Part shown: positions 16,664-24,078 of the stretch, piece after piece
Layout: every line of letters starts with the position of its first letter
Numbering within the stretch: the first letter of the stretch is position 1
NCBI RefSeq assembly: GCF_016903815.1
Contig: NZ_CP069970.1
DNA length: 39,407 nt
From: Escherichia coli
GTDB lineage: Bacteria; Pseudomonadota; Gammaproteobacteria; Enterobacterales; Enterobacteriaceae
Reading direction: 5' to 3' (one strand)
Notes under the pieces: generated by a model
Database searches by the model: none
The model's input: the letters and a program-made list of their open reading frames with translations, nothing else
What the model was told of the DNA's origin: nothing
Program-made: the position numbers and the translations under genes

Positions 16664-17857
16664 GTGACCTGGGACGATCACAAGAAGAATTTTGCTCGCC
16701 TGGCGCGAGATGGTGGTTACACCATCGCACAGTATGCCGCCGAGTTTAATCTTAACCCTAATACTGCACGTCGTTATCTCCGTGCCTTCAAAGAAGACAC
16801 CAGGACAGCGGACAGCCGCAAGCCAAATAAACCAGTCAGGAAGCCACTAAAAAGCATGATCATTGATCACTCTAATGATCAACATGCAGGTGATCACATT
16901 GCGGATGAAATAGCGGAAAAACAAAGGGTTAATGCCGTTATCAGTGCCGCAGTCGAGAATGCGAAGCGCCAAAATAAGCGTATAAATGATCGTTCTGATG
17001 ATCATGACGTGATCACCCGCGCCCACCGGACCTTACGTGATCGCCTGGAACGCGACACCCTGGATGATGATGGTGAACGCTTTGAATTCGAAGCTGGCGA
17101 TTACCTGATAGATAACGTTGAAGCGCGGAAGGCCGCTCGCGCTATGTTGCGTCGGTCCGGGGCCGATGTTCTGGAAACCACTCTTCTGGAAAAGTCTCTT
17201 TCTCATCTCCTTATGCTGGAGAACGCCAGGGATACGTGTATTCGTCTGGTGCAGGAAATGCGCGATCAGCAAAAAGACGATGATGAAGGGACTCCGCCTG
17301 AATATCGTATCGCGAGCATGCTAAACAGCTGTTCCGCGCAGATAAGCAGCCTGATCAACACCATTTACAGCATCCGGAATAACTATCGAAAAGAAAGCCG
17401 GGAGGCGGAAAAGCACGCTTTATCTATGGGGCAAGCTGGCATTGTTAAGCTGGCATACGAACGAAAGCGTGAAAATAACTGGTCAGTGCTGGAAGCAGCT
17501 GAATTCATCGAGGCGCATGGCGGAAAAGTGCCGCCCCTGATGCTGGAGCAAATCAAAGCCGATCTGCGTGCTCCTAAGACCAATACCGATGATGAGGAAA
17601 GGCAAACAGCCGTCGGTGGCCCTTCTCTTGAAGATCTGGACAAAGTTGCGCGAGAACGGGCCGCCAACCGCCGCGCCGATGCCGCATTGTGGATTGAGCA
17701 GCGTAGGGAAGAAATCGCCGATATCGTTGATACAGGCGGTTATGGAGATGTTGATACTGAAGGTGTATCAAACGACCCATGGCTGGAACAAGACCTGGAC
17801 GAAGACGAGGAGGAAGACGAAGAAGTTACCCGCAAGCTATACGGGGATGATGATTAA
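16664..17857 (+). CDS. pacA: terminase/pacase small subunit PacA
   Basis: 397 aa, GTG start after AAAGGAAG; contains the pac hexamer clusters in its 5' part; TAATG overlap with pacB. Confidence 0.9.
16857..17016. other. pac packaging site: four TGATCA(N) elements (16857-16897), then three (16987-17016)
   Basis: Seen directly: TGATCAT, TGATCAC, TGATCAA, TGATCAC, then ~90 bp, then TGATCG, TGATCA, TGATCAC. Each has a GATC Dam site. This is the established P1 pac architecture inside pacA. Confidence 0.75.
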
Positions 17858-22221: not shown

Positions 22222-22459
22222 AATTATGCCTCACTGTATTGACAACACAGAGCCTGAAGCTCTGACCTACTGTTTCACCCATGATCCATGCTGGGGTAAT
22301 CTAACAACATTGCGCTGTGTGTAAGATGAGCAATGCATAGCTGTAATGCCGTTGTATAAGGTTTCCCTGTTTGCTCATTTCCTTCTGAGCCGCTCTACAA
22401 CGCTGAAGACACATTAAATAGTGAATCCAAAGTCGTATTACGTAACGGCGGCAAAACTA

Positions 22460-22476
22460 TAATTTATTAGAGCAAT
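22460..22476 (-). promoter_or_regulatory. C1 operator (Op99-type) upstream of the c1 operon
   Basis: The reverse complement reads ATTGCTCTAATAAATTA, a 16/17 match to consensus. Confidence 0.65.
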
Positions 22477-22542
22477 TGTCAAACAACTATGAAAAACAAT
22501 CCAGTTTTTAGCTGGTGGAGTGGGATTTTTCTCTCCAAATTT

Positions 22543-22559
22543 ATTGCTCTAATAATTCT
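22543..22559 (+). promoter_or_regulatory. C1 operator-like site next to loxP
   Basis: ATTGCTCTAATAATTCT, a 14/17 match. Confidence 0.5.
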
Positions 22560-22602
22560 TGATTTTTGTGCGCAGCTGGACGTAAACTCCTCTTCGGACC
22601 TG

Positions 22603-22636
22603 ATAACTTCGTATAGCATACATTATACGAAGTTAT
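22603..22636. other. loxP: loxP recombination site
   Basis: Exact 34-bp ATAACTTCGTATA-GCATACAT-TATACGAAGTTAT. Confidence 0.97.
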
Positions 22637-22817
22637 CTTAAGGGTTATTGAACATGATCAATTTACCTGTAAATCCATACAGTTCAATACCTTATCAGGT
22701 CAAATAGTGATCATTTGATCAAGGTTGCGCTACGTAAAATCTGCGAAATGTTGGCAGTGTTAGTGCTCCAGATTTCGCGTAGCGCACTTAGCACCACCAA
22801 TCAATCAGAGGTGAAAA

Positions 22818-23039
22818 ATGGGATATTCAGCTGCTAAAGTGTCCACTCATCTTGAGCTTGAGAAAAACCGTGGTTACTGGCGGGCAAAAGGGTTTGATCG
22901 TGATAGTTGTCAACTGTCATTATCGCGCGGTGAAGAGAAAATAGAACGCACGCGCGGTCGCTGGCGTTTCTATGACGAGAACCATAAACAGGTAAAGGCA
23001 GAGCCGATCCTGTACACTTTACTTAAAACCATTATCTGA
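22818..23039 (+). CDS. hypothetical small protein between loxP and cre
   Basis: 73-aa ORF with SD GAGGTG 5 nt before the ATG; no recognisable domain; lies in the cre promoter region with two GATC sites and an imperfect inverted repeat upstream. Confidence 0.25.
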   Translation: MGYSAAKVSTHLELEKNRGYWRAKGFDRDSCQLSLSRGEEKIERTRGRWRFYDENHKQVKAEPILYTLLKTII

Positions 23040-23046
23040 GTGTTAA

Positions 23047-24078
23047 ATGTCCAATTTACTGACCGTACACCAAAATTTGCCTGCATTACCGGTCGATGCA
23101 ACGAGTGATGAGGTTCGCAAGAACCTGATGGACATGTTCAGGGATCGCCAGGCGTTTTCTGAGCATACCTGGAAAATGCTTCTGTCCGTTTGCCGGTCGT
23201 GGGCGGCATGGTGCAAGTTGAATAACCGGAAATGGTTTCCCGCAGAACCTGAAGATGTTCGCGATTATCTTCTATATCTTCAGGCGCGCGGTCTGGCAGT
23301 AAAAACTATCCAGCAACATTTGGGCCAGCTAAACATGCTTCATCGTCGGTCCGGGCTGCCACGACCAAGTGACAGTAATGCTGTTTCACTGGTCATGCGA
23401 CGGATCCGAAAAGAAAACGTTGATGCCGGTGAACGTGCAAAACAGGCACTGGCGTTCGAACGCACTGATTTCGACCAGGTTCGTTCACTCATGGAAAATA
23501 GCGATCGCTGCCAGGATATACGTAATCTGGCATTTCTGGGGATTGCTTATAACACCCTATTACGTATAGCCGAAATTGCCAGGATCAGGGTTAAAGATAT
23601 CTCACGTACTGACGGTGGGAGAATGTTAATCCATATTGGCAGAACGAAAACGCTGGTTAGCACCGCAGGTGTAGAGAAGGCACTTAGCCTGGGGGTAACT
23701 AAACTGGTCGAGCGATGGATTTCTGTCTCTGGTGTGGCTGATGATCCGAATAACTACTTGTTTTGCCGTGTCAGAAAAAATGGTGTTGCCGCGCCATCTG
23801 CCACCAGCCAGCTATCAACTCGCGCCCTGGAAGGGATTTTTGAAGCAACTCATCGATTGATTTACGGCGCTAAGGATGACTCTGGTCAGAGATACCTGGC
23901 CTGGTCTGGACACAGTGCCCGTGTCGGAGCCGCGCGAGATATGGCCCGCGCCGGAGTTTCAATACCGGAGATCATGCAAGCTGGTGGCTGGACCAACGTA
24001 AATATTGTCATGAACTATATCCGTAACCTGGATAGTGAAACGGGGGCAATGGTGCGCCTGCTGGAAGATGGCGATTAG
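23047..24078 (+). CDS. cre: Cre site-specific tyrosine recombinase
   Basis: 343 aa, MSNLLTVHQNLPALPVDATSDEVRKNLMDMFRDRQAFSEHTWKMLLSVCRSWAAWCKLNN..., recognised as P1 Cre. Confidence 0.98.
   Translation: MSNLLTVHQNLPALPVDATSDEVRKNLMDMFRDRQAFSEHTWKMLLSVCRSWAAWCKLNNRKWFPAEPEDVRDYLLYLQARGLAVKTIQQHLGQLNMLHRRSGLPRPSDSNAVSLVMRRIRKENVDAGERAKQALAFERTDFDQVRSLMENSDRCQDIRNLAFLGIAYNTLLRIAEIARIRVKDISRTDGGRMLIHIGRTKTLVSTAGVEKALSLGVTKLVERWISVSGVADDPNNYLFCRVRKNGVAAPSATSQLSTRALEGIFEATHRLIYGAKDDSGQRYLAWSGHSARVGAARDMARAGVSIPEIMQAGGWTNVNIVMNYIRNLDSETGAMVRLLEDGD

Follow-up and report, generated by a model that had tools for sequence, protein, structure and literature searches.

The interval between loxP and cre was analysed in a 39,407-nt stretch of Escherichia coli DNA (the window). 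It holds, on the same strand as cre, a 73-codon open reading frame (ORF). Read rightward, the leader of this ORF comprises loxP, a LexA box, the GATC-bearing −35 hexamer of promoter pR1, a dyad with 18-bp arms of which the left covers the pR1 −10, the motif CCAATCAATCA and a strong Shine-Dalgarno (SD) sequence (Table 1). Over the 541 nt of positions 22560-23100, identity was 100% with Escherichia phage vB_EcoM-673R5 and 96-98% with P1, P7, SJ46, RCS47 and other P1-like phages; window position 22620 corresponds to P1 coordinate 1. Promoter positions are GenBank annotations marked 'putative' or 'predicted', transferred by alignment from P1.

An earlier note on this DNA had described a 73-aa ORF with a good SD between loxP and cre, and the frame, its ATG start and both flanks were recovered. 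The SD sequence given there, GAGGTG, is present at 22808-22813, but the gap to the start codon is 4 nt (AAAA, then ATG) and not 5 nt, or 6 nt when counted from the GAGG core; read by eye, GAGGTGA agrees with the SD consensus over 7 nt. The two GATC sites mentioned in the note were found at 22709 and 22717, just upstream of 22727, where it had the inverted repeat begin. The repeat itself exists, with an extent that differs from the ~22727-22775 proposed, a range that clips the right arm.

Table 1. Features of the loxP-cra-cre region, in window coordinates
Feature	Position	Strand	Basis
loxP, 13-bp arms, 8-bp spacer	22603..22636		annotated in X03453, AF234172
Dam site 1 (GATC) of the cre regulatory region	22656..22659		P1 annotation 37-40, transferred by alignment
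P2coi promoter (leftward), overlapping LexA box CTGTAAATCCATACAGTTCA (22665-22684)	22660..22687	-	P1/P7 annotation, transferred by alignment
GATC pair 8 bp apart, including pR1 (P3cre) −35 TTGATC at 22715-22720	22709..22720	+	annotation and alignment
pR1/P3cre −10 TAAAAT, within left arm of inverted repeat	22735..22740	+	annotation, transferred by alignment
Inverted repeat, left arm TGCGCTACGTAAAATCTG	22726..22743		repeat search and leader comparison
Inverted repeat, spacer/loop of 25 nt; length invariant, sequence variable	22744..22768		leader comparison
Inverted repeat, right arm CAGATTTCGCGTAGCGCA	22769..22786		repeat search and leader comparison
Conserved leader motif CCAATCAATCA, then SD GAGGTGA	22797..22814	+	sequence, leader comparison
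cra (ORF1, Upf0.2), 73 aa, 8.7 kDa, pI 9.6, ATG start	22818..23039	+	ORF call, annotation, homology, pN/pS
pR2 (P2cre) inside cra; −35 TTGATC 22894-22899 (contains GATC), −10 22918-22923	22894..22923	+	annotation, transferred
pR3 (P1cre) inside 3' end of cra; −35 TGTACA 23011-23016	23011..23035	+	P1 annotation
cre, 343 aa	23047..24078	+	ORF call, annotation

Identity and coding status of cra

The earlier note allowed that the ORF might be an unannotated small gene, and here the records say otherwise. In the 1986 record of the P1 cre region (X03453) it is entered as "pot. ORF1 (aa 1-73)" with a putative ribosome-binding site of its own, promoter pR1 being placed upstream of the ORF and pR2 and pR3 within it. 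The P1 genome record (AF234172) names the gene cra and its product Cra, with a "putative cre associated function", and also annotates three Dam sites, the LexA box, the leftward P2coi and the promoters P3cre (pR1), P2cre (pR2) and P1cre (pR3). In the P7 record the gene is called upf0.2, and the map in a paper of 2008 shows cra between loxP and cre (PMC2409434). The order loxP, cra, cre is the same in P1, P7 and X03453, with cra and cre on one strand.

The window protein was 98.6% identical to P1 Cra (AAQ13977; tblastn E=8e-43), the one amino-acid difference being T5 in the P1 reference and A5 in the window, and 100% identical to the Cra proteins of phiW39, SJ46 and others. P1 Cra shares the loxP-cre locus, the length and the SD of the window ORF; the P1 reference leader differs in having an 8-bp GATC unit that is absent from the window leader. 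A search against phage protein families matched phrog_804 with E=7.2e-35 (residues 3-73 aligned to positions 1-72 of the 72-position profile), and the core motif seen in the family alignments, E-x-E-K-x-x-G-Y-W-R-A-K-G-F ... R ... W ... L-x-x-L-L-K, is present in window Cra. This ORF is cra, a known gene of P1 that stands first in a rightward cra-cre transcription unit beginning just right of loxP. What is added here to this known gene is evidence that cra truly codes for protein and does not depend on cre, a more accurate description of the dyad and a number of minor observations. Cre-lox is among the most heavily used genetic tools, and this gene is the neighbour of cre in its native operon.

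Coding was assessed on 86 distinct full-length DNA versions of the gene. Among the 36 versions close to P1 (73 aa), pN/pS was 0.19 in frame as against 1.15 and 1.67 in the wrong frames, and 8, 11 and 27 segregating sites fell on the first, second and third codon positions. The nine versions from diverged P1-like elements (71 aa, 59-69% identity) gave 0.30 in frame, 1.23 and 1.55 out of frame, and 27, 21 and 58 sites, and the 41 from SSU5-like phage-plasmids (70 aa, ~40% identity) gave 0.135 in frame, 1.56 and 2.40 out of frame, and 31, 19 and 63 sites. All three groups show an excess of segregating sites at the third codon position. Invariant residues are spelled by three or four different codons, with four each for A23, G25, L35 and R46, and a GAGG-type SD or an ATGA stop-start coupling precedes the cra start in most lineages.

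Two natural frameshift alleles were found in P1-like plasmids. In one, TTGATCG has become TTGA-GG by a 1-nt deletion within the GATC of the pR2 −35; in the other, GCAAAAG has become GCAAAG, again by loss of 1 nt. Both cut Cra to 41 aa and leave cre intact (alleles P0043, in L318-L321, and P0045, in L322-L324, with the gene at 1501-1626). That two such alleles of independent origin are still present in many samples shows Cra to be dispensable, at least in the short term. The alleles are nevertheless rare, with 138 and 36 index blocks compared to 27,432 and 17,720 for the two commonest intact alleles (~174 against >45,000 blocks, a disruption of ~0.4%). Frame-disrupting indels, which the earlier note had named as evidence against a gene, thus exist but at low frequency, while the codon-level conservation across relatives that it had proposed as a check gave a synonymous-site signal in favour of coding.

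A second constraint may act on part of the same DNA. Promoters pR2 and pR3 lie inside the coding sequence of cra, so that one stretch serves two functions, and codons 65-67 (CTG TAC ACT, 23010-23018), which hold the pR3 −35 TGTACA, showed no synonymous variation in 45 distinct P1-like sequences, diverged ones among them, an invariance that fits such a constraint at the pR3 −35. It could accordingly be argued that the ORF is a chance open frame, the conservation of which reflects only pR2, pR3 and other embedded DNA signals. The annotation of both promoters within the ORF, the zero synonymous change over the pR3 −35, the circulation of truncating alleles with intact cre and the lack of a known domain in Cra would all agree with this. 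The substitution pattern, however, is specific to the frame (pN/pS 0.13-0.30 in frame, >1 otherwise, with the third-position excess), the AF2 fold of Cra is confident, and the GATC of the pR2 −35 is not conserved in diverged P1-like genes while the protein is. The SSU5-like homologues, moreover, retain the length and the invariant residues with no cre downstream, and as cre is absent from their vicinity, conservation there cannot come from cre promoters. The pN/pS pattern and the cre-less homologues effectively refute a chance ORF, which we consider very improbable, and with it falls the earlier suggestion that the ORF is coincidental.

These comparisons indicate that purifying selection acts on cra, which is a genuine gene and not merely promoter DNA, though dispensable in the short term. 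Its identity as cra and its coding status, taken jointly, are close to certain. The note's description of the interval as cre promoter region holds for pR1 upstream and for pR2 and pR3 inside the ORF; coding overlaps with this role and does not replace it. The two functions coexist, and the either/or framing was too narrow. The best overall explanation, a real cra gene with overlapping cre promoters and a conserved leader dyad, is given a probability of roughly 0.8.

The Cra protein and its relatives

An AF2 model of Cra built on a deeper alignment reached a pLDDT of 89.3 and a pTM of 0.75, with helices at residues 5-16 and 18-23, strands at 34-37, 40-45, 48-52 and 58-62 and a helix at 65-71. 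Cra is thus predicted to be a small basic alpha+beta protein in which a helix and a short helix are followed by a four-stranded sheet and a C-terminal helix. A first AF2 run on a shallow alignment had given a different, all-beta model (pLDDT 63) and was dropped in favour of the deeper-alignment model. Residues E13, G25, R37, W49 and L65 are invariant and the motif GYWRAKGF is conserved; all members of the family are basic, with pI values of 9.6-10.7.

Pfam returned no domain for Cra, only a sub-threshold match to CENP-H, and no NCBIfam model matched. A sequence profile search of the PDB gave nothing below E=0.5, and a search of BFVD retrieved uncharacterized phage proteins only; no convincing structural or family match for the predicted fold was obtained. 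A profile search of 1.84 billion representatives yielded only 24 clusters, all of small proteins. The Cra family is small and limited to phages and phage-plasmids (phrog_804).

The searchable literature yielded no functional or expression study of Cra, cra and cre are both absent from a paper on RNA-seq of P1vir, and purifying selection speaks only for the translation of Cra. It is established that Cre carries out lox recombination by itself and needs no cofactor. Since, in addition, the Cra family occurs without cre, "Cre-associated" describes a position and not an activity. The current understanding of Cre-lox is unchanged by these results. Cra is perhaps most likely a non-essential nucleic-acid-binding protein with an accessory or regulatory role in the plasmid-prophage state, rather than a recombination cofactor, although any specific function that might be assigned to it is doubtful.

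In NCBI, many copies of Cra are labelled 'creatininase' (clusters P0002, P0005 and P0024-P0031). Creatininase (creatinine amidohydrolase) enzymes are ~260 aa long, whereas Cra has only 73 aa, and neither Pfam nor NCBIfam finds such a domain (PF02633) in it, so a creatininase was rejected as a candidate. The label probably arose when the gene symbol cra was wrongly expanded, and has spread from there; as a name for Cra it is wrong, though widespread.

The homologues of SSU5-like elements (SSU5_068; CYRAN_62 of Cyrano, 'P1 Cra protein') have 70 aa, share ~40% identity and are likewise basic. Across the joint P1-like and SSU5-like alignment, E13, E15, G19, Y20, W21, R22, G25, L35, R37, I42, R46, W49, L65, L68, L69 and K70 are invariant. 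The surroundings differ: P1-like loci have cre and the leader dyad near lox, while SSU5-like loci have no cre and no such dyad (0/71 regions). There, an operon ends with cra, which overlaps the stop of a 111-aa gene (phrog_2077), is coupled to that gene in translation and lies ~600 bp from a divergent repA. The family to which the neighbour of cre belongs therefore reaches phage-plasmids that lack cre.

In a distant lineage, a Cra of only ~41% identity is followed 9 nt downstream by the start of a Cre homologue that is 64% identical, so by sequence comparison the cra-cre pairing persists even at this degree of Cre divergence. The contig of this most divergent cra-cre lineage (P0054) begins 38 nt before cra, which places its leader outside the covariation set described below, and no complete P0054 record was present in the phage and plasmid collections searched. 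Another distant Cra member (P0051, 73 aa; L327:3391-4170 and L328), on short metagenome contigs, divergently adjoins a pair of umuD-like (Peptidase_S24) and umuC-like (IMS) genes. The block c1-coi-lox-cra-cre was also seen within two chromosome-sized records, L325 (CP035320.1, 5.03 Mb, at 131228-134449) and L326 (CP050217.1, 6.65 Mb, near the record end); these are either integrated P1-like prophages or assembly joins.

The dyad in the cra-cre leader

The two arms of the inverted repeat are complementary at 16/18 positions across a 25-nt loop. A search of the window for 18-nt arms with at least 16/18 complementarity and a spacer of 3-40 returned no repeat but this one, and 19/20 composition-preserving shuffles contained none. 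Single arms recurred elsewhere in the window as two 2-mismatch matches only, consistent with chance. The repeat is not annotated as a feature in the X03453, AF234172 or P7 records.

The dyad was present in 92/93 distinct P1-like leaders and in 0/71 SSU5-like regions. The arms hardly vary across the 40 distinct loxP-to-cra leaders from close relatives, and the 25-nt spacer is the polymorphic hotspot, with two haplotypes plus recombinants. In 10/10 diverged leaders the core GCTACG...CGTAGC is invariant at a start-to-start distance of 43 bp, despite divergence of the spacer. Where a 356-aa gene has been inserted between leader and cra, the dyad stays with the leader upstream of that gene and hence belongs to the promoter/leader of the operon, not to cra. 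It is a conserved and previously unannotated part of the cra-cre promoter/leader, sitting on the first promoter of the cre operon, and probably a functional element of it.

Among the roles considered, that of an operator is slightly favoured on the comparative evidence, but only tentatively. The arguments for it are the overlap with the −10, the fixed spacing of the half-sites and the free sequence of the spacer: symmetry is conserved, the spacing of 43 bp is constant and the left arm lies over the annotated pR1 −10. Like generic repressor operators that overlap a −10, the dyad has a conserved motif of 15-18 bp in two inverted copies, with constant spacing and one copy on the −10. The half-sites of a classical dimer operator, in contrast, are far closer together than the 43 bp between the centres here, and the 25-bp gap is unusually long for a simple dimer.

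Alternatively, the repeat may form an RNA stem-loop in the cra-cre 5' leader that acts on mRNA stability, on processing (for example by RNase III) or on translation, which would need transcripts starting upstream of the left arm. The 109-nt hairpin has a predicted energy of −32 kcal/mol and folds moderately better than shuffled sequences (z=−2.57; 2/200 shuffles did as well), RNAalifold retained a 13-pair consensus stem, and one pair has changed from AU to UA in a diverged clade. In leaders of the L311 type the arms even match better (12 contiguous nt), though the −10-like hexamer is degraded. On the other side, the annotated −10 of pR1 falls within the left arm; RNA from pR1, expected to start at ~22746-22749, should therefore lack that arm. 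Covariation was not above that of shuffled alignments: over 10 distinct diverged leaders, 82.8% of cells were paired compared to a shuffled mean of 81.7%, 110/500 shuffles were as high, and double changes occurred at two pairs of the dyad, the same as in shuffles. A hairpin would not require a loop of strictly 25 nt with free sequence, no U-tract follows the repeat and the scan found no terminator, and Rfam gave no match at E up to 1. Covariation speaks for neither reading; an operator-like site is slightly favoured over an RNA hairpin, and we regard the hairpin as unlikely.

Somewhat less likely again is that the symmetry has no function of its own, the left arm being kept as the pR1 −10 and the right arm as initial transcribed or leader sequence, with the match between them a coincidence or left over from an old duplication or rearrangement. 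The absence of significant covariation and of other copies in the window is compatible with this, as is the rearrangement of the leader in evolution, in which cassettes of a 68-aa and a 356-aa gene are present or absent. The dyad was kept, however, where spacer and flanks have diverged almost completely, and the exactly complementary hexamers GCTACG/CGTAGC stand at fixed spacing in 10/10 diverged and 92/93 P1-like leaders. In L311-type leaders, furthermore, the left arm no longer has a good −10 but pairs better with the right arm.

Three other assignments were rejected. A lox-type Cre target with ATAACTTCGTATA arms would have a spacer of 8 nt instead of 25, and the arm match is weak (by eye, the right arm agrees with a lox arm plus two spacer bases at ~10/15 positions in the window and ~7/15 in L317). 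An intrinsic terminator or attenuator is contradicted by 0 terminator-like sites in 22400-23300, by the 25-nt loop and by the right arm being followed by CTTAGCACC with no T-run. Finally, compared by eye, the sequence resembles neither a C1 operator nor the LexA box nearby.

In the proposed mode of action, transcripts from pR1 would be translated into both Cra and Cre, while pR2 and pR3 would allow cre expression without cra. The dyad would most likely be a protein-binding operator gating pR1 or, as the alternative, act as a hairpin in RNA begun further upstream. A more far-reaching version, in which the dyad is the operator of an undescribed feedback loop in which the amount of Cre in P1-type plasmid prophages is controlled by a phage protein, Cra or Cre, and in which Cra represents a new family of small basic DNA-binding regulators common to P1-like and SSU5-like phage-plasmids, seems improbable.

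GATC units, diverged leaders and neighbouring repeats

A promoter and terminator scan of 22400-23300 called no promoter; the annotated promoters have non-canonical spacers, that of pR1 being 14 nt, so the scan counts neither for nor against them. As annotated, P1 pR1 would belong to the Dam-sensitive promoters with GATC in the −35, and its TTGATC hexamers stand 8 bp apart directly upstream of the dyad. The pIN promoter of IS10 is another that is sensitive to Dam methylation and has GATC in its −35. Further GATC sites were found at 22656, 22896 and 23006. Over the whole window, GATC occurred 152 times with 153 expected; the density being as expected, only the local pair spaced by 8 bp is special. 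The densest GATC cluster of the window lies elsewhere, at ~16830-17080 (4 sites per 100 nt over ~250 nt), and is probably the pac site inside pacA.

Other leaders carry three 8-bp units, TGATCACT, TGATCATT and TGATCAAG, the first of which reads TGACCACT in the P1 reference. The window has no first unit TGATCACT at 22707/22708, between AATAG and TGATCATT, while 39/39 other distinct P1-like leaders have it, leaving two GATC upstream of the dyad compared to three units in the relatives. As the units offer alternative −35 hexamers for pR1, loss of one could alter the strength of pR1 or its sensitivity to Dam.

Diverged P1-like leaders repeat the layout of the window in the order loxP, LexA box, GATC cluster, left arm, 25-nt spacer, right arm, CCAATCAATCA, SD and first gene, and the LexA box CTGTAAATCCATACAGTTCA is kept in them. 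Their first gene is the 356-aa gene (phrog_7674, with no Pfam or NCBIfam match), followed by cra through an ATGA overlap and then by cre. It was found in elements from Salmonella, Klebsiella and Cronobacter (L311:1434-2504, L005:2437-3507, L314, L317, L088, L089 and L315). The 68-aa gene sometimes precedes it, and P1 and the window have neither. In these two, the leader is joined directly to cra, which explains their different N-terminus, longer by 2 aa.

The motif CCAATCAATCA (22797-22807) stands directly before the SD of the first gene and is present in two copies in L088, before the 68-aa and the 356-aa gene; it could be a translation-leader signal or a short homology for the gain and loss of cassettes. 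A perfect 10-nt inverted repeat, GACCTGATAA/TTATCAGGTC (22597-22606 and 22692-22701), flanks the segment that holds loxP, Dam site 1 and the LexA box, its left copy overlapping the left lox arm; as the right copy TTATCAGGTC is mismatched in the P1 reference, this repeat may be due to chance. To the left of loxP, at 22543-22555, lies ATTGCTCTAATAA, which resembles the consensus of the P1 C1 repressor operator and is presumably the operator already described for the coi/imc promoter region.
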